From an uncultured Gammaproteobacteria bacterium (GTDB lineage: Bacteria; Patescibacteriota; Patescibacteriia; UBA2591; UBA6264), in the NCBI GenBank assembly GCA_964596735.1, contig CAZQVF010000006.1, positions 24,152 through 88,151 of the forward strand: a DNA stretch of 64,000 bases, read 5' to 3'. Below, in pieces: positions 11,090-23,482 of the stretch; position 1 is the stretch's first letter; every line of letters begins with the position of its first letter. The position numbers and the translations under genes were made by a program. Under the pieces are notes generated by a model. That model saw only the letters and a list, made by a program, of their open reading frames with translations, searched no databases and was not told where the DNA came from.

Positions 11090-11512
11090 TTATTCAGGAA
11101 GGGGTTCACTTGTAGCCTCTTTGGTTACTCCGGATAGTCTTTCAACTACGAACTGAGAAATGGAATAAGAGAATATAACAATTATTAAACCAATCAAAGC
11201 TGATGACATTAGCTTTTTTGCTTTAGTTACCTGCTCGGCATTTCCGCCAGAAGTCATCCACATTATTCCGCCAGCAATCATTAAGACCACTAAGATTATT
11301 CCCATTAAGCCAAGGATAACTCCGATTATCCGACCAACAATTGCTGTTGGTTGAGTCTCTGATCCTAAACCAGCCACGTTTGCTGTTTGTTCCAATTCTC
11401 CAAGTTGAGCAAAAGCGACTTTTTTTTCTACTAAAAAACCGCTTAAAGCTAAGAGTAAAATTAATATTATTAAAACATAAACCACCTTCTCTTTCGAGTC
11501 GAGATGTTTCAT
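11090..11512 (-). CDS. secreted membrane-hairpin pilin-like protein (TrbC/VirB2-like T4SS pilin family candidate)
   Basis: Signal peptide followed by two hydrophobic helices around a conserved GGIMWMTSGGNAEQ..KAKKLM..ALIGLIIVI core that is shared with three neighbouring paralogs. Confidence 0.45.
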   Translation of the reverse strand: MKHLDSKEKVVYVLIILILLLALSGFLVEKKVAFAQLGELEQTANVAGLGSETQPTAIVGRIIGVILGLMGIILVVLMIAGGIMWMTSGGNAEQVTKAKKLMSSALIGLIIVIFSYSISQFVVERLSGVTKEATSEPLPE

Positions 11513-11531: not shown

Positions 11532-11897
11532 CTAGGTTGTTACGCCTGATAACTTACCAATAACAAATGCAGCAATAGCGTAAGCGAGGATAACAATAAT
11601 TAAACCAATCAAAGCTGATCCCATCAATTTTTTAGCACTCTTAATTTTCTCTTCATTTCCTCCAGAGGTCATCCACTGGAAGCCACCAACAATAATTAAA
11701 ACAACTGCCACCAAACCAAGGAGACTTAAGACTATCTGAATTATCTTTCCAATAATTTCAGATAAACCAGCTGAACCATAACCTGCTCCTGTCTGAAAAT
11801 TGGTCAAATAATCATTCCCAAAATTTAATTGACCTAAAGCAATCGCTGGGAGTAAGAGTAAAGCGATGATAAGCCCTGGAACAATGTAATTTTTCAT
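11532..11897 (-). CDS. secreted membrane-hairpin pilin-like protein (paralog)
   Basis: Contains the GGFQWMTSGGNEEKIKSAKKLMGSALIGLIIVI core. Confidence 0.45.
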   Translation of the reverse strand: MKNYIVPGLIIALLLLPAIALGQLNFGNDYLTNFQTGAGYGSAGLSEIIGKIIQIVLSLLGLVAVVLIIVGGFQWMTSGGNEEKIKSAKKLMGSALIGLIIVILAYAIAAFVIGKLSGVTT

Positions 11898-16937: not shown

Positions 16938-19844
16938 ATGCCAGTCAAAAAGAAAAATATAAAAAGAAGATCGTCTTGGAAAAGCCGACCAATTGGCAAA
17001 AAAACCAGGTCAAAGGGTCGTTTTAAAAAGACAAGAAAAAATCAAACAAACTCTTTGCGTAGTTTTTCTATTTTCTTTGGTTTTTCTATTTTATTAATTA
17101 GTGTTTTTGTAATTGGCACTTTTTCTTGGCTCACTTATACATTACCTAATCCAGAAGAACTTTTACAAAGAAACATTGCTCAAAGCACTAAAATTTATGA
17201 CCGCACTGGCAAAGCAGTATTATACGAAATATTTGCAGAAGAAAGAAGAAGCTTAGTTGAGCTTAAAGACATACCTCAAAACTTAATTAATGCCACGTTA
17301 ATGGCTGAAGATCAAGATTTCTTTACTCATCCTGGATTTGATCTTAAAGGAATCTTTAGGGCTATAATTGTTGATGTTTTGCAAGGAGGAAAGGTTCAAG
17401 GAGCGTCTACTTTAACTCAACAATTTATTAAAAATGCTTTTTTAACTACTGAAAAAACCTGGCAACGAAAAATTAAAGAATTACTTTTAGCCTATCAGTT
17501 AGAAAAAAAATATTCTAAACAAGAAATTCTACAAATGTATTTTAATGAAATTCCCTATGGATCAAACGCTTACGGGGCTGAAGCAGCTAGTCAAATCTAT
17601 TTTGGAAAATCAGTTAAAAATTTAGGGCTTGATGAATGTGCTCTCTTAGCGGCTATGGCTAAAGCTCCTACTTATTATTCTCCACGAGGTAATCATCAGG
17701 ATGAATTAATTCTCCGCCGCAATTATCTTCTAGATGTTATGGCTGACAAGGGACATATTTCTCAAGAATTAGCTAGTCAAACAAAAAAAATAAGTACTTT
17801 AGAAAAAGTTACCCCTCGTTATGAGAACATTACTGCCCCTCACTTTATTATGTATGTTAAAGGACTTTTAACAGAAAAATATGGTCAACGATCTGTTGAA
17901 CAAGGTGGGTTTAAGGTTATTACCACTCTTGATGTAAATAAACAAGAAATTGCTGAAAAAGCAATTGAAAATCAAGCTAAAAGAAACGAAGAAATATTTA
18001 AAGCAACTAATGCTGCCTTGGTTAGCATTGACGTTAAAACAGGACAAATTCTTGCCATGGTTGGCTCAAAAGACTTTTTTGATGAAGAAATTGATGGCCA
18101 GGTTAATGTTGCCACTCGTCTTCGCCAACCTGGTTCTTCTTTTAAACCAATTGTTTATGCGGCGGCTTTTGAAAAAGGCTATACTCCTGACACAATCCTT
18201 TTTGATGTAGAAACAAGTTTTGGTCCAACCGGAATTGATGATGAAGAATATATTCCTCAGAACTATAATGAAAAATTTTATGGACCAGTAACTATTCGTC
18301 AAGCTTTGTCTGGATCTTTAAATGTTCCTGGAGTTAAAACCCTTTATTTAACCGGCGTAAATAATGCCTTAAATTTAGCTCAAAGAATAGGCTATACTAC
18401 TTTAGTTGATAAGAGTCGTTACGGACTATCTCTTGTTCTAGGTGGAGGCGAAGTTAAACTTCTTGAGCACGTAGCTGCTTTTGGTGTTTTTGCCAGGGAG
18501 GGAGAAAAAATTCCCACTACCTGCATTCTCAGAGTAAAAGATGCTTCAGGAAAAGTCCTTGAAGAAAACGATCCTGAACTTTTTATTCCCCAAAGAGCTA
18601 TTGAACCTCAAATTACTCGCCTTATTAACAACATCCTTTCTGACAATCAATCCCGTGCTTTTGTTTTTGGTGAAAATAACCATTTAACCCTACCTGATCG
18701 CCCCGTAGCGGCTAAAACTGGAACAACTAATAATTTTCGTGACGCCTGGACAGTCGGCTATACTCCTGATCTAGTGGCTGGCGTCTGGGTTGGCAACAGC
18801 CGCAACGAAGCAATGGCAGATAAGGCAGATGGCTCTAATGTTGCTGCCCCTATTTGGCAAGAGTTTATGGCAAAGTCCTTAATCAATACTCTGGCAAAAG
18901 AATTCACTCCTCCAGAGCCAATTATTGTTGATAAGCCTATCCTTAAGGGACAAATGCCAAGTGAAATTACCCTTGAAGTTGATAAGGCCTCTCGCAAATT
19001 AGCGACTGATTTAACCCCTGATTCACAAAAAATAAGAAAAACATTTAAAAAATATTATCCTATTCTCTATTATTTAGATAAAGATGACCCTCGAGGGCCA
19101 ATCCCTAAAAACCCCGGCCTTGATTCCCAATATGAACGCTGGCAACAGGGAATAAAAGATTGGCTAGAAAAACTAAGTGAAGAAAATGGAGACGAAATTA
19201 AAATAGAGATTCCCCCGACTGAATATGATGATTTACATGTTCCAGCAAATCAACCAAGCTTATCAATCATCTCTCCACAAAATGGAATAACAGTTAGTTC
19301 CCAAATTTTACCAATCAAATTAACAACCGCGACTCCTAGAGAAACTAGCAAATTAATCTGCTATGTTGATAATATTCCCATAGACTCGGTTTCTCTTGAA
19401 AACGTTCCTAACAACTCTTTATCTGAATGTTTTATTAATTTTGCTGGCCTTGATTTAGGAGAACATAAAATTAAGGTTAGTGTTTTTGATGATATTGATA
19501 ATAGTAAAAGTCAGGAAATTTGGGTTATTGCTAATAAAACATTTAATCAAGAAATTTCCTGGTTGAATCTCGACAATAATGATACTGTTTTACAAAAAGA
19601 CTTTCCTTTAAATTTAAGTGTGTTAGCTCCTGCCTTAAAAATAAAAATGGTTAGATTCTTTGCTCAAAATCTAACCACATTACAAACTTCTTTGATTGGA
19701 ACAATCTTTAATCCAGAAGCAAGTGGAAGAATAAATTTAAACTGGAATATGGCCGACAAAACAGGCTATAAACTATGGGCAGAAATAATTGACACCAATA
19801 ATCAAACGCTGATTGGGAAAGAAATACAAGTTGAGGTTAAATAA
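16938..19844 (+). CDS. penicillin-binding protein 1A (GT51 transglycosylase + transpeptidase) with long C-terminal extension
   Basis: EDQDFFTHPG GT51 motif, SSFKP and KTGT transpeptidase motifs, N-terminal TM helix. Confidence 0.85.
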   Translation: MPVKKKNIKRRSSWKSRPIGKKTRSKGRFKKTRKNQTNSLRSFSIFFGFSILLISVFVIGTFSWLTYTLPNPEELLQRNIAQSTKIYDRTGKAVLYEIFAEERRSLVELKDIPQNLINATLMAEDQDFFTHPGFDLKGIFRAIIVDVLQGGKVQGASTLTQQFIKNAFLTTEKTWQRKIKELLLAYQLEKKYSKQEILQMYFNEIPYGSNAYGAEAASQIYFGKSVKNLGLDECALLAAMAKAPTYYSPRGNHQDELILRRNYLLDVMADKGHISQELASQTKKISTLEKVTPRYENITAPHFIMYVKGLLTEKYGQRSVEQGGFKVITTLDVNKQEIAEKAIENQAKRNEEIFKATNAALVSIDVKTGQILAMVGSKDFFDEEIDGQVNVATRLRQPGSSFKPIVYAAAFEKGYTPDTILFDVETSFGPTGIDDEEYIPQNYNEKFYGPVTIRQALSGSLNVPGVKTLYLTGVNNALNLAQRIGYTTLVDKSRYGLSLVLGGGEVKLLEHVAAFGVFAREGEKIPTTCILRVKDASGKVLEENDPELFIPQRAIEPQITRLINNILSDNQSRAFVFGENNHLTLPDRPVAAKTGTTNNFRDAWTVGYTPDLVAGVWVGNSRNEAMADKADGSNVAAPIWQEFMAKSLINTLAKEFTPPEPIIVDKPILKGQMPSEITLEVDKASRKLATDLTPDSQKIRKTFKKYYPILYYLDKDDPRGPIPKNPGLDSQYERWQQGIKDWLEKLSEENGDEIKIEIPPTEYDDLHVPANQPSLSIISPQNGITVSSQILPIKLTTATPRETSKLICYVDNIPIDSVSLENVPNNSLSECFINFAGLDLGEHKIKVSVFDDIDNSKSQEIWVIANKTFNQEISWLNLDNNDTVLQKDFPLNLSVLAPALKIKMVRFFAQNLTTLQTSLIGTIFNPEASGRINLNWNMADKTGYKLWAEIIDTNNQTLIGKEIQVEVK

Positions 19845-19846
19845 AG

Positions 19847-20458
19847 ATGAAGCAATTAATTATTGGCACAAAAAATCAAGCCAAGTTTAATCAAATAAAA
19901 GGGGTCTTGAGCTCCCTTAACATTGAAATAATGGGGCTCCCAACAGGGATTGATTTACCTGAGGTAATCGAAGACAGGGCGACTGCCCAAGAAAACGCAA
20001 GAAAGAAAGCAATATTTTATTCTCAATTTTTAAAGAAGGCTGTATTATCTATAGACAATGCCCTTTATATCGAGGGCTTAAGCCTTGATAAGCAGCCCGG
20101 AATTAATGTTAGAAGAATTAAAGGAAGGACTGATAGACCAAGCGACAAAGAACTTTTAAGTTATTATCAAAAAATATTTAGACCATTAGGAAATAGAATT
20201 AATGGACATTGGGAAGTTGCAATTTGTGTGGCTCATCCTAATGGTCAACTTAAGGAAACAACAATTGTTTCTCCTCGTATTTTTACCAATAAAAAAAGTG
20301 AAAAAATAACCAAGGGATATCCCCTTGAATCGCTACAAATTGACCCAAAAAGTGGTAAATATATTTCAGAAATGGATCAACAAGAACAGAATGTTTTTTG
20401 GAAAAAAATAATAGGGAGTCCTCTAAAAATTTTTGTTGAAAAAGCTATGTCCCTGTAG
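19847..20458 (+). CDS. Ham1/RdgB-like non-canonical purine NTP pyrophosphatase
   Basis: N-terminal GTKNQAKFNQIK region matches the Ham1 family, about 200 aa. Confidence 0.55.
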   Translation: MKQLIIGTKNQAKFNQIKGVLSSLNIEIMGLPTGIDLPEVIEDRATAQENARKKAIFYSQFLKKAVLSIDNALYIEGLSLDKQPGINVRRIKGRTDRPSDKELLSYYQKIFRPLGNRINGHWEVAICVAHPNGQLKETTIVSPRIFTNKKSEKITKGYPLESLQIDPKSGKYISEMDQQEQNVFWKKIIGSPLKIFVEKAMSL

Positions 20459-20538
20459 GCCATAGCTTTATTTAAAATTAAAATATAAAAACAACCCTGA
20501 AATGAACCTAAAGGGTCGTTCTTAATTTCACATATTTT

Positions 20539-21393
20539 CTACTCTTTCTCCACTACAATCATCACTTTTTCTCCCTGCAGCATGACTTCCTCTGCCTTTT
20601 CATCCTTGGAAAGAAACTTTATCTCGTCTAAAGAAAAGGGCCAATCATGGATCGCCTTAAAAAAAATATCATCTGAATATATAAAATCTGCTCCTAGGCG
20701 TGTTCCTGGATCATTAGTAATGATCCCTTTTTTATTATACCCCTTTACAACTAACATATGATATGGTGGTCCTGGCTGGCGATAATAGGGATTTTTTAAT
20801 AACCTCCCAGCTGCTGGAACGATAACAATATTGCCCTTGCTCAATTCGTATTTAACATTATCGATACTGTCTACGTTGGTAATATATATTTTTTCTATAC
20901 CAAAATATTGATCAGCCAATCTGACCGTTTCAGAGGCATTTAAATCATAATGTCCACCCCAATTATCTTCTTGCCATTTAACTGAATCTAAAATTTGTTC
21001 ATTTGCTTGTTCTTTGGTTAATTCTTGATTATTTAACCAGGCATTAGCAATAATTAAGACGGCTTCTTCGCAAGCCTCTTTATGTAATTCGTCCCACTCA
21101 GCAAACGGGGCTTGAACAATAAAGGGAACTGACAAATCAACTGATTCTTCTAGCTCTGAAGAAAAATCTTGGACAATAGTCTCTTCTATTTCAGATTCTT
21201 CAGGGATATTTCCAATAGGAAAATTTTCTGTTGAATTTTGTTCTTGATAGTCTTGTTCTAATGGTTTTTGCTCAACATCTGGAGTAGAAGAGAAATCCTT
21301 TGGACTAAATAACCAAAAATCAAAAACAAAAACTACCGCTAAGACAACGAATCCGATAATTATTTTTTGAAAAAGACTTTTACTTTCTTCCAT
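20539..21393 (-). CDS. membrane-anchored protein with C-terminal papain-like (C39/YvpB-like) domain candidate
   Basis: N-terminal TM helix and acidic linker, with a Cys (EACEEA) ... His (YHMLVVKGY) ... Asp (TNDPG) arrangement. Confidence 0.3.
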   Translation of the reverse strand: MEESKSLFQKIIIGFVVLAVVFVFDFWLFSPKDFSSTPDVEQKPLEQDYQEQNSTENFPIGNIPEESEIEETIVQDFSSELEESVDLSVPFIVQAPFAEWDELHKEACEEAVLIIANAWLNNQELTKEQANEQILDSVKWQEDNWGGHYDLNASETVRLADQYFGIEKIYITNVDSIDNVKYELSKGNIVIVPAAGRLLKNPYYRQPGPPYHMLVVKGYNKKGIITNDPGTRLGADFIYSDDIFFKAIHDWPFSLDEIKFLSKDEKAEEVMLQGEKVMIVVEKE

Positions 21394-23482
21394 ATTGTGC
21401 TTTATAGTACTTTAAATACTCTCCAGACTTTATTCTTTTCCACCAATCCTGATTACTCTTGTACCAATCAATTGTTTCCTTTAATGCTTTGTTAAATTTG
21501 TGTTTCGGCTCCCAGCCAAGTTCTTTTTTAATTTTTGTCGCATCAATAGCATAACGTAGGTCATGTCCCTTGCGATCAGCCACATATTTAATTTTATCTT
21601 TACCAAAACCTAAAATCTTAAGAACTTGATAAGTAATCTCTAAATTTGTTTTCTCTTCATTTCCTCCAATACAATAAGTCTCTCCTGTTTTTCCTTTACG
21701 TAAAACGACATCTATAGCCTGACAGTGATCTTCTACATATAGCCAATCTCTAACATTAAGCCCATCTCCATAAAGGGGAACCTTTTTACCTTGTAAAAGA
21801 TTGGTGGCAAATAAAGGAATAAGTTTTTCTGGAAATTGATAAGGGCCATAATTGTTGGAACAATTAGTAATAGTGATGGGGAGTTGATAAGTATGAAAAT
21901 AAGCCCGTACCAGATGATCAGAGGCTGCCTTAGAAGCAGAATAAGGACTACGAGGGTCATAAGGTGTTTTTTCATTAAAAAAGCCTGTTGGGCCAAGGCT
22001 GCCGAAAACCTCATCTGTATTCCCACAAAAATCTAACCTTCCATTTCTTTCGATAATAAAATTTTTATTGTCCTCGACGTTTAAACACCAAATTTTTCCT
22101 TTATATTTTTTTTTGCTAACATTATCCCTTATTAACATTTTTCTGCGACCCGAAAAACAAACATAATAACCATGCCCGCTTATCTTTCTATTTTTATAAA
22201 AACTTTTAGAAAATCTTCTTCCGACTAATGGTTTTTTATTTAATTTAAAAGCCAGCTCACAAATATCAGAAACAAGTTTTTCCGAGACAGTATAATAAAT
22301 TAGGCTCCCCTTTTTTTTACTTCCATCACTATCTATTAATCCGTCTAATAGATATTTTAAATATCTAGGAGAATAAGTCAGCATCCACCTGGGTATACAT
22401 TTATTCTTAGCCCCTTTTCCGAATTGTTCGAAAAAATCCATCCACTCCTTAGAAGAAAAATATAAATGCTCTCCTGCCCTTCCTTGATGGGTATGAAAAG
22501 GTATGCCTAAAATCTTTAACGCCCCCTCCACTTTCTTTCTAGCTTTATCGCTTCTAGGAACATCAAAAAATATTCTGTAACTATTTTGTTCGATAAGGTG
22601 TTTGTTTTTTGTCCTTATGCTATAGAATCTGCCCTTATTATCCCTGCCCCTTCTCATATACTCCGTTTTATTTAACCCTGTTTTTGATTCTTGAATTTTT
22701 ATTTGATGGCTAATAAATCCATCACCTATAAAAAACCCACACAAATAAAACAAATCTTTTGTGATCAATTTTCCAATATTTTTAATCCTGGTAAATTCTT
22801 TGTCTTCACCTGCCCATTTAGCTTCTGGCATAAAATTTCTACTTCGCGATAATAATTCTCTCGCTTCTTCCAATTTGATATTACCGCATTTTGTTTCTAA
22901 ATACATTCGATGATTTGGGGTTGTTTTAATATCTATCCTTTTGCTCTTAAAATAAATCATCTCTCCTTGATAATCTTGAATAATAACTTTATTCACTTTT
23001 TTTTCTTCTAAGAATTTTGACTTGGAATTAATACTAAAAACCACATCTCCTTTTTTTATTTCATTATATTTTTTAAATCCATCTTTAGTTAAAGCTCTTG
23101 TCTCTTCGTCATAACAAGAAACATGATGAAATCTTTTGTTTCCATGTTTAGTGGCTGCATTTAATAAGGTAGTTGTTCCCAAAATATTGGTGTTGATAAA
23201 AGGCCCTGGATCTAAAATAGAACGATCAACATGACTCTCTGCTGCTAAATGAATAATCGCATCGCATTGTTTAACCAAACTATCAACTAATTCAACATCG
23301 CAAATGTTTCCCTTGATAAATTTGTACTTAGGATTATTTTCAACTTCTTTTAAGTTTTCTAAATTGCCACAATAGGTTAACAAATCAAGGTTAACTATTT
23401 CATCTTCTGGATAATTTTTTAAAATATAGTGGATAAAATTTGATCCAATAAATCCAGCTCCACCAGTGATTAAAAGTTTCAT
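21380..23482 (-). CDS. rfbB: dTDP-glucose 4,6-dehydratase interrupted by an in-frame intein
   Basis: GGAGFIGS Rossmann motif and YSASK catalytic motif. The exteins total 334 aa and join as HHVS|TDEVFGS. A 366-aa insertion carries the intein blocks. Confidence 0.85.
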   Translation of the reverse strand: MKLLITGGAGFIGSNFIHYILKNYPEDEIVNLDLLTYCGNLENLKEVENNPKYKFIKGNICDVELVDSLVKQCDAIIHLAAESHVDRSILDPGPFINTNILGTTTLLNAATKHGNKRFHHVSCYDEETRALTKDGFKKYNEIKKGDVVFSINSKSKFLEEKKVNKVIIQDYQGEMIYFKSKRIDIKTTPNHRMYLETKCGNIKLEEARELLSRSRNFMPEAKWAGEDKEFTRIKNIGKLITKDLFYLCGFFIGDGFISHQIKIQESKTGLNKTEYMRRGRDNKGRFYSIRTKNKHLIEQNSYRIFFDVPRSDKARKKVEGALKILGIPFHTHQGRAGEHLYFSSKEWMDFFEQFGKGAKNKCIPRWMLTYSPRYLKYLLDGLIDSDGSKKKGSLIYYTVSEKLVSDICELAFKLNKKPLVGRRFSKSFYKNRKISGHGYYVCFSGRRKMLIRDNVSKKKYKGKIWCLNVEDNKNFIIERNGRLDFCGNTDEVFGSLGPTGFFNEKTPYDPRSPYSASKAASDHLVRAYFHTYQLPITITNCSNNYGPYQFPEKLIPLFATNLLQGKKVPLYGDGLNVRDWLYVEDHCQAIDVVLRKGKTGETYCIGGNEEKTNLEITYQVLKILGFGKDKIKYVADRKGHDLRYAIDATKIKKELGWEPKHKFNKALKETIDWYKSNQDWWKRIKSGEYLKYYKAQYGRK
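22019..23116 (-). mobile_element. intein with LAGLIDADG homing endonuclease domain inserted in rfbB
   Basis: Block A starts with Cys (CYDEETRAL), block B is TTPNH, block F is CLNVEDNKNFI, and block G is NGRLDFCGN with Thr at +1. Two LAGLIDADG motifs are present (LCGFFIGDGF and LLDGLIDSDGS). Confidence 0.8.

Follow-up and report, generated by a model that had tools for sequence, protein, structure and literature searches.

How can an active enzyme be obtained from a gene that is interrupted immediately before the codon of a catalytic residue? The question is raised by rfbB (rmlB), which encodes a dTDP-glucose 4,6-dehydratase (RmlB), in a 64,000-nucleotide stretch of DNA (hereafter, the window) from an uncultured bacterium with a Patescibacteria-like genome (GenBank assembly GCA_964596735.1, contig CAZQVF010000006.1, positions 24,152 to 88,151). 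In this gene, a 1098-bp in-frame insert separates the codon of Ser122 from that of the following Thr. An earlier note, made from the sequence of the window, had interpreted the insert as a full-length intein carrying a LAGLIDADG endonuclease. Tests of sequence and fold confirmed that the insert has the features of an intein, with a Hint fold and a double-motif LAGLIDADG endonuclease. As to how the rfbB product would be processed, we assign a probability of about 0.8 to the reading that a full-length self-splicing LAGLIDADG intein, most likely using the class 1 route, divides the precursor between Ser122 and the catalytic Thr.

The interrupted rfbB gene and its insert

The precursor open reading frame (ORF; 21380..23482, complementary strand, as are all parts of the gene described below) encodes 700 amino acids (aa), and its frame of 2103 nt is intact. 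The N-extein (aa 1–122; 23117..23482) runs from the Rossmann motif GGAGFIGS to RFHHVS, the insert begins with CYDEETRAL at residue 123, and the C-extein (aa 489–700 plus stop; 21380..22018) begins with TDEVFGS, so that the protein is composed of 122 + 366 + 212 aa. These boundaries agreed to the base with those of the earlier note, which had placed the insert at 22019..23116, and all of the splicing blocks and both LAGLIDADG motifs that it quoted were present, far more than could be put down to chance. The whole ORF scored 477 bits against TIGR01181 (dTDP-glucose 4,6-dehydratase; cutoff, 365), but the match consisted of two stretches, the first ending at residue 122 and the second resuming at 488; the Pfam match to GDP_Man_Dehyd (2e-82) was likewise split in two. 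When the exteins were joined, the resulting 334-aa sequence aligned from end to end with solved RmlB enzymes (Bacillus anthracis 6bi4, E = 1.8e-132; Salmonella enterica 1g1a, E = 9e-111), with no gap at the junction, as had been predicted, and with GGAGFIGS (GxxGxxG), TDE and YSASK (YxxxK) in register. The residue that opens the C-extein, the +1 Thr (22016..22018) of T-D-E-V-F-G, aligned with Thr133 of 1g1a and was followed by the equivalents of Asp134 and Glu135. Thr133 is the catalytic Thr of RmlB, and Asp134 and Glu135 are the acid/base pair of the dehydration step, which upholds the earlier identification of this Thr as that of the short-chain dehydrogenase/reductase (SDR) motif; YSASK of the C-extein supplies the Tyr and Lys. 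Judged by the equivalog cutoff, which the ORF passes, the host protein is a dTDP-glucose 4,6-dehydratase. Because the insert separates the NAD-binding half from the catalytic residues, the precursor would be inactive until the insert is removed, and the organism would have active RmlB only after splicing.

The identity of the insert was settled by family profiles and structure, since scans with the single sequence remained below threshold. A phmmer search of the Protein Data Bank (PDB) with the single sequence gave only weak matches (E = 0.007–0.07), and these were superseded by two profiles: one built from an alignment of 20 full-length inteins (the homologue search had yielded 36 relatives), and one representing the splicing domain, or mini-intein. 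The full-length profile matched PI-PkoII (3.5e-17), the Thermococcus litoralis and Pyrococcus horikoshii VMA inteins (about 1e-13) and PI-SceI (5e-9); through its splicing domain it also matched the AceL NrdHF intein (6zgq, 1.7e-9), KlbA (2e-7) and the hedgehog Hint domain (1e-3). With the mini-intein profile the corresponding values were 1.1e-11 (AceL NrdHF), 6e-9 (KlbA) and 7.5e-4 (hedgehog), and bacterial intein-like (BIL) and RecA mini-inteins were also among the matches of the splicing domain. LAGLIDADG_3 was matched by 12 of the 20 family members (best, 6.5e-12). An AlphaFold2 model computed from the full-length alignment had a predicted local distance difference test (pLDDT) score of 93.4 and a predicted template modelling (pTM) score of 0.88. 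Foldseek ranked endonuclease-bearing inteins highest among PDB entries (7qsu, 3.9e-16; PI-PfuI, PI-PkoII and PI-SceI), followed at lower rank by I-DmoI (5e-6) for the endonuclease half and by hedgehog and mini-inteins for the splicing half; the endonuclease portions of PI-SceI and PI-PfuI were among the matched regions. In the model, the secondary-structure order of the endonuclease, alpha-beta-beta-alpha-beta-beta-alpha, occurred twice. The earlier expectation that Hint and LAGLIDADG_3 profiles would recognize the insert was thus borne out by the family profile, AlphaFold2 and Foldseek, but not by the single sequence.

In the 366-aa intein, the homing endonuclease is set into a Hint splicing domain. 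The conserved positions of the intein were compared across 262 distinct family members, all aligned with that of the window (263 at some positions). Block A (Cys1-Y-D-E-E-T-R-A-L-T-K-D-G; 23078..23116) starts with Cys1 (23114..23116), which was present in 262 of 262 inteins and, when checked by eye, in six further representatives whose alignment began after position 1. The core of block B, T66-P-N-H69-R70-M71 (22904..22921; the TTPNH of the earlier note), carries B:7 Thr (258 of the inteins), B:10 His (all), B:11 Arg (Arg in 185 and Lys in 33, 218 together) and B:12 Met (195), and the string S/T-P-N-H-R-M is also found in the AceL NrdHF intein. Block F (KGKIWCLNVEDNKNFII; 22052..22102), whose core reads KIWCLNVEDNKNFII, aligned with VYDLSVEDNENFLV of PI-PkoII and IYDLTVEDNHTYIA of KlbA. 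Its Cys344 (22085..22087) falls on the F:4 Asp of both; F:4 was Cys in 251 inteins, Asp in 7 and Ser in 4, and Lys351 stands where the F:13 His is usual. Block G (ERNGRLDFCGN; 22019..22051) ends with Cys364 (G:5), Gly365 (G:6; Gly in 255) and Asn366 (G:7; Asn in 262), and the +1 residue was Thr in 134 cases, Ser in 113 and Cys in 15. The catalytic set is therefore complete, comprising Cys1, Thr66/His69, Asn366 and Thr+1, each conserved across the 262 relatives. A penultimate His, a common but non-obligatory feature of inteins, is absent and replaced by Gly365. The earlier note had recorded this substitution correctly but had overlooked the conserved Cys at F:4; with Gly in 255 inteins and a compensating Arg at B:11, the penultimate Gly is, on the evidence of the alignment, a conserved trait of the clade and not a sign of decay. 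A non-splicing BIL or Hint domain was ruled out by the +1 nucleophile and the terminal Asn.

Within the endonuclease, the first LAGLIDADG motif, KDLFYLCGFFIGDGFIS (LCGFFIGDG; 22709..22759), contains the acidic Asp132 (Asp or Glu in 245 of 263) and is modelled as a helix (residues 119–132) followed by strands. The second, LKYLLDGLIDSDGSK (LLDGLIDSDG; 22316..22360), contains Asp264 (Asp in 249 of 263) and is the top-scoring stretch against PI-PkoII and the VMA inteins; both LAGLIDADG helices thus end in Asp. Between them, the GAKNKCIP segment (22379..22414) aligned with AENKRIP of PI-PkoII, and its Lys239, within K-x-I-P, was invariant in the 20-sequence alignment and Lys (251) or Arg (12) in the 263 inteins. 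The first endonuclease half also includes a Lys/Arg-rich segment, HQIKIQESKTGLNKTEYMRRGRDNKGRFYSIRTKNKH (about 22580–22700; intein residues about 140–180), which was kept in SDR and NadE inteins and missing from ThyX and NrdD members of the family. Confidence in the model was lowest there (pLDDT 77–83), and the segment may be an added DNA-contact element.

The empty site and the spread of the intein

The ten proteins most closely related to the spliced extein were 91–93% identical to it, and each was exactly 334 aa long. Among the 120 closest RmlB proteins, which were mostly from Patescibacteria and Moranbacteria, none (0/120) carried an insert, and the longest was no more than 361 aa. One intein-less relative was on a 45.9-kb contig of assembly GCA_004196315.1 (L001), in which the gene order is that of the window (YceG, GtrA, RfbB, peptidase C39_2). 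In a blastn comparison, the two sequences were 87–90% identical at the nucleotide level, and the alignment broke at L001:10366, stopping at window position 23117 and resuming at 22019. L001 lacks exactly the 1098 bp of the intein, indicating a clean insertion into ...CA(T/C)CATGTTTCT|ACAGATGAGGTTTTCGGCAGC...; the empty site of L001 itself reads ...AAAAGGTTTCACCATGTTTCT|ACAGATGAGGTTTTCGGCAGCCTTGG.... This defines the presumed homing site, as judged by comparison of the two alleles, and provides the intein-less relative that the earlier note had hoped would reveal it. Other boundaries, with a start at Ser122 or a different end, were rejected, since the invariant H-H-V-S-T-D-E would then have one residue lost or doubled and since the DNA break relative to L001 is exact. 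A filled and an empty allele with full synteny also constitute a ready target sequence for a new LAGLIDADG specificity. The GC content at third codon positions (GC3) was 0.26 in the intein and 0.22–0.27 in the host genes; a recent foreign arrival of the intein was rejected because of this match.

The two contigs also differ in the neighbourhood of rfbB. Directly after the shared C39_2 peptidase gene, L001 carries a KAP_NTPase-QatB-QueC-TatD cluster (L001:12262-16973) that resembles a Qat-type anti-phage island. The cluster is absent from the corresponding place in the window (about 16938–20538), where synteny ends at 20538, at a Ham1-family gene and a gene for a class A penicillin-binding protein.

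Elsewhere, SDR dehydratases from a wide range of lineages were found to carry inteins of the same kind at the identical place (x-S|C...G-N|T-D-E-V). The bacterial carriers included Gammaproteobacteria, Pyrinomonadaceae/Acidobacteriota, Armatimonadota, Planctomycetota, Chloroflexota, Omnitrophota, Levybacteria and other Patescibacteria (candidate phyla radiation), and the archaeal carriers included Diapherotrites and Nanoarchaeota (DPANN), Nitrososphaeraceae and one Asgard archaeon. Five viral contigs from IMG/VR, 14–219 kb in length (L084, L085, L087, L088 and L159), likewise encode an SDR dehydratase with an intein at S|T-D-E, and might act as carriers of the intein between bacteria and archaea. 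Altogether, at least 45 distinct inteins occupied the SDR S|T site, and paralogous SDR enzymes were occupied at the homologous position (...S|C...N|SSECYG in a GDP-mannose-dehydratase-like protein, TNKVYG and TDKVYG). The site, which the earlier note had called uncommon, is thus uncommon in RmlB but not among SDR genes. The SDR-site inteins were 38–55% identical to that of the window, and the identities of inteins and exteins were not correlated (Spearman rho = 0.23, p = 0.15, n = 42). The exteins of all carriers were at most 69% identical to those of the window, whereas intein-less orthologues reached 93%, as would be expected if a homing element were directed at an invariant motif.

A sister lineage (29–36% identity over the full length) resides in the NAD+ synthetase NadE, between G-Y-F and T-K-Y-G-D-G-G, with a +1 Thr. 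It comprised 44 distinct inteins (P0012-P0026 and L023-L051; for example, L045:2788-3894) from Anaerolineae, Thermoflexales, Omnitrophota, Nitrososphaerota, Archaeoglobaceae and Hadarchaeota. Remoter members were found in NrdD-like proteins, ThyX, a methyltransferase and many phage proteins. Among 1.84 billion cluster representatives, the family profile matched 47,047 at E<=1e-3, a count that includes LAGLIDADG inteins in a broad sense, and 7,456 at E<=1e-30. The intein of the window can fairly be described as an ordinary member of a very large family, of which one lineage has colonized a single motif in bacteria, in DPANN and Asgard archaea and in viruses, as well as paralogous SDR enzymes and NadE. 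Many representatives (P0157-P0304) were proteins of 1000–3700 aa with 3–12 matched stretches, that is, with several inteins of the clade in one host protein. In P0189 (residues 939–1275 onward), an intein ending in ...VWTGN is followed by one Cys and then by the next intein (...TGN|C|CYTKGHDVLT).

Our literature search found no paper on an intein in a dTDP-glucose dehydratase or another SDR sugar-nucleotide enzyme. One homologue carries the automatic JGI annotation 'nucleoside-diphosphate-sugar epimerase/intein/homing endonuclease'. The insertion site before the SDR catalytic Ser/Thr is, accordingly, undescribed in the literature found, yet recurrent, being present in dozens of database sequences. 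SDR sugar-nucleotide dehydratases, cut exactly before the catalytic Ser/Thr, thus join the list of intein insertion sites.

Splicing route and rival explanations

We propose that the intein would excise itself after translation and join HHVS to TDEVFG, yielding a normal 334-aa enzyme. In a class 1 start, Cys1 would form a thioester at the N-terminal junction, from which the acyl group would pass to the hydroxyl of Thr+1. Asn366 would then cyclize, the C-scissile bond being polarized by Arg70 (B:11) in place of a penultimate His, and an O-to-N shift would restore the peptide bond. On DNA, the endonuclease would cut intein-less alleles of rfbB at ...CATGTTTCT|ACAGATGAGGTTTTC..., and repair would copy in the 1098 bp. 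Homing at a site so strongly conserved would explain the sporadic occurrence of the intein across phyla. We infer both splicing and DNA cleavage from conservation and from precedent. Class 1 chemistry appears to be the most likely route, since Cys1 is invariant in the clade and since, among inteins generally, only one residue is more common at F:4 than Cys (PMC4031507).

Several observations weigh against this reading. Single-sequence scores were below the cutoffs for Pfam Intein_splicing (32.9 bits; cutoff, 35.8), NCBIfam intein_Nterm (23; 24.5) and LAGLIDADG_3 (17–19; 22.5). In place of the canonical helpers Asp F:4, His F:13 and His G:6, the intein has Cys, Lys and Gly. The intein, matching its host in GC3, is not compositionally fresh, and its nearest intein relative is only about 55% identical, so that no recent homing event is documented. 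In addition, the near-invariance of Cys F:4 and its association with a +1 Ser or Thr suggest that the first step is perhaps not plain class 1.

This last point leads to a rival that we consider rather unlikely, namely that Cys344 (F:4) is a covalent nucleophile, either attacking the N-scissile bond directly (class 3, with Cys1 dispensable) or acting in a relay that would bring the acyl group from the Cys1 thioester through Cys344 to Thr+1, a poor oxygen nucleophile, and that would lie between classes 1 and 3. The closest solved splicing domain, by both profiles, is that of AceL NrdHF, an atypical class 3 intein that is split in nature (PDB 6zgq; Hoffmann et al. 2020, PMC7891396) and in which Cys124 (F:4) is essential and C124A/S abolishes all activity. 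It has S-P-N-H-R-M in block B, has no His at F:13 or G:6 and ends in T-G-N|S (PMC7891396), an unusual signature that it has in common with the window intein (S/T-P-N-H-R-M, Cys F:4, no His F:13/G:6, x-G-N|S/T). Only its N-terminal half aligned, whether a 44-aa fragment, a chimeric mini-intein from P0031 or the mini-intein profile was used, so that the C-terminal comparison depends on residues quoted in that paper. Cys F:4 was paired with a +1 Ser/Thr in 241 clade inteins and with a +1 Cys in 9, whereas six of the seven with Asp F:4 had a +1 Cys (Fisher p = 9e-8). The inteins with Asp F:4 are only 22–37% identical to one another, and each is equally close to one bearing Cys. Class 3 inteins typically have a +1 Ser/Thr (PMC5222942), and 3 of 37 inteins with the class 3 triplet retain an N-terminal Ser or Cys (PMC2807308). 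However, the Fisher test ignores phylogeny and the sample is biased by the retrieval patterns. The covariation is, at the level of this alignment, a lead and not a result. The presence of Cys1 in all 262 inteins and in the six further representatives suggests that splicing requires it. Class 3 inteins, in contrast, are defined by the lack of a position-1 nucleophile and by the triplet Trp B:12, Cys F:4 and Thr G:5 (WCT; PMC5222942, PMC2807308). The window intein has the Cys at F:4 and a +1 residue of the kind usual in class 3, but it has Cys1, Met71 at B:12 and Cys364 at G:5; AceL NrdHF also has Met at B:12, yet Thr at G:5. Moreover, the Asp or Ser found at F:4 in eleven clade members indicates that the clade can do without an F:4 thioester. 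By the defining feature of class 3, the lack of a nucleophile at position 1, the window intein is outside that class, and we retain the class 1 route as the preferred reading.

If, on the other hand, Cys F:4 were the relay nucleophile, this huge clade (Cys1, Cys F:4, Arg B:11, Gly G:6 and mostly a +1 Ser/Thr) might represent a bridge between class 1 and class 3, with both cysteines serving in a thioester relay that starts at Cys1 and runs through Cys F:4 to the +1 hydroxyl; from this clade, class 3 inteins of the AceL NrdHF type would have arisen by loss of Cys1. We regard this proposal as speculative and rather doubtful. It would, if true, imply that the class 3 mechanism, called monophyletic in reviews, arose twice independently; a relay through Cys F:4 would thus bear on class 3 evolution and could give splicing tools for a +1 Thr or Ser.

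The two remaining rivals concern the consequences for the enzyme. It seems very improbable that rfbB is functionally dead and that its intein is a decayed remnant which no longer splices, as might be suspected from the missing His at G:6 and F:13, the missing Asp at F:4 and the sub-cutoff Pfam and NCBIfam scores. Wang and Liu are said to have found in 1997 that the Chlamydomonas ClpP intein, which has a penultimate Gly, did not splice in Escherichia coli until this Gly was changed to His. Against decay, the reading frame of the interrupted gene is intact, every position that is invariant across the 262 relatives has been kept, including both acidic residues of the endonuclease, and the exteins are 91–93% identical to intein-less orthologues and retain all RmlB motifs. 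Gly at G:6 is the norm of the family and does not keep AceL NrdHF from splicing fast, and no second copy of RmlB was found within the 64-kb window. We also consider improbable, to a lesser degree, that splicing is conditional, for example redox-gated through Cys residues 1, 344 and 364, and thus a post-translational switch on dTDP-sugar synthesis. The catalytic Thr-Asp-Glu and YxxxK are divided by the insertion from the half that binds NAD, so that the precursor would not be active, and the three cysteines cluster in splicing blocks; redox-sensitive inteins, such as that of mycobacterial DnaB, have been described (PMC6195587). On the other side, nothing in the sequence data speaks for regulation, and the family occurs in many unrelated hosts (NadE, NrdD-like proteins, ThyX and methyltransferases), as expected of a selfish element at conserved sites. 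Close relatives manage without the RmlB intein, and there is no rhamnose operon around rfbB: neither rmlA, rmlC nor rmlD adjoins it. The suggestion in the earlier note that rhamnose synthesis could be splicing-dependent holds trivially for RmlB, provided that the gene is used; a regulated version of it is pure inference.

The neighbours of rfbB have cell-envelope and housekeeping functions (MltG/YceG, GtrA, a C39-like peptidase, a class A penicillin-binding protein, a thioredoxin-reductase-like protein, a GalU-like protein and glycosyltransferases), and the window contains no second intein of this family. Elsewhere in the window, two small neighbouring ORFs on the complementary strand (11090-11512 and 11532-11897; 140 and 121 aa) matched NF045849, 'Mbov_0395 family pilin-like conjugal transfer protein', with scores of 34.7 and 38.1 bits, slightly short of the cutoff of 40.

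Comparison with known enzymes and inteins

The host protein resembles the RmlB enzymes 1g1a and 6bi4 over the full length of its spliced exteins, without gaps and with GxxGxxG, T-D-E and YxxxK, and differs from them in that its gene is interrupted by 1098 bp.

Among solved inteins, those of class 1 that bear a LAGLIDADG domain, namely PI-PkoII (2cw7), the Tli and Pho VMA inteins (7qsu, 7qss and 7qst), PI-PfuI (1dq3) and PI-SceI (1vde), share with the window intein a Hint domain interrupted by a two-motif endonuclease, Cys1, T-x-x-H in block B and a C-terminal Asn, and they are likewise inserted in conserved active-site motifs. The similarity is evident in profile comparisons (E = 3.5e-17 to 5e-9) and in Foldseek alignments (3.9e-16 to 1e-9; TM-score about 0.5–0.58), but sequence identity is only 12–18%. 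Their hosts are polymerases or ATPases rather than an SDR sugar-nucleotide dehydratase, and they have Asp F:4, His F:13 and His G:6 where the window intein has Cys, Lys and Gly. PI-SceI has an extra DNA-recognition domain, of which there is none in the 366 aa of the window intein. The ClpP intein of Chlamydomonas eugametos likewise has Gly before the terminal Asn; in that intein the Gly reportedly impaired splicing in E. coli, whereas in the window clade it is the conserved state and is accompanied by a compensating Arg.

The canonical WCT class 3 inteins (mycobacteriophage Bethlehem DnaB, Msm/Mch DnaB-1) share Cys F:4 and a +1 Ser/Thr with the window intein, and most of them have LAGLIDADG domains. 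The window intein differs from them in having neither Trp B:12 nor Thr G:5, in having an N-terminal nucleophile, and in that the hosts of its clade are not helicases.

The best solved match of the splicing domain remains AceL NrdHF (1.1e-11), which shares x-P-N-H-R-M, Cys F:4, the lack of His at F:13 and G:6, the x-Gly-Asn end and a +1 hydroxyl nucleophile. AceL NrdHF splices efficiently, within minutes, its Arg69 (B:11) touches the C-scissile carbonyl, and G145H abolishes its activity (PMC7891396). Its Arg B:11 thus compensates for the missing penultimate His, and the window intein also has Arg at B:11, so that the data on AceL NrdHF provide a tested precedent for Asn cyclization here without the two histidines. 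The two inteins also differ: AceL NrdHF has Ala1 and a proven start at Cys F:4, whereas Cys1 is present in the window intein and invariant in its clade; AceL NrdHF has Thr at G:5, whereas the window intein has Cys; and AceL NrdHF is split and accompanied by a free-standing GIY-YIG gene, whereas the window intein is contiguous and carries its LAGLIDADG domain within.

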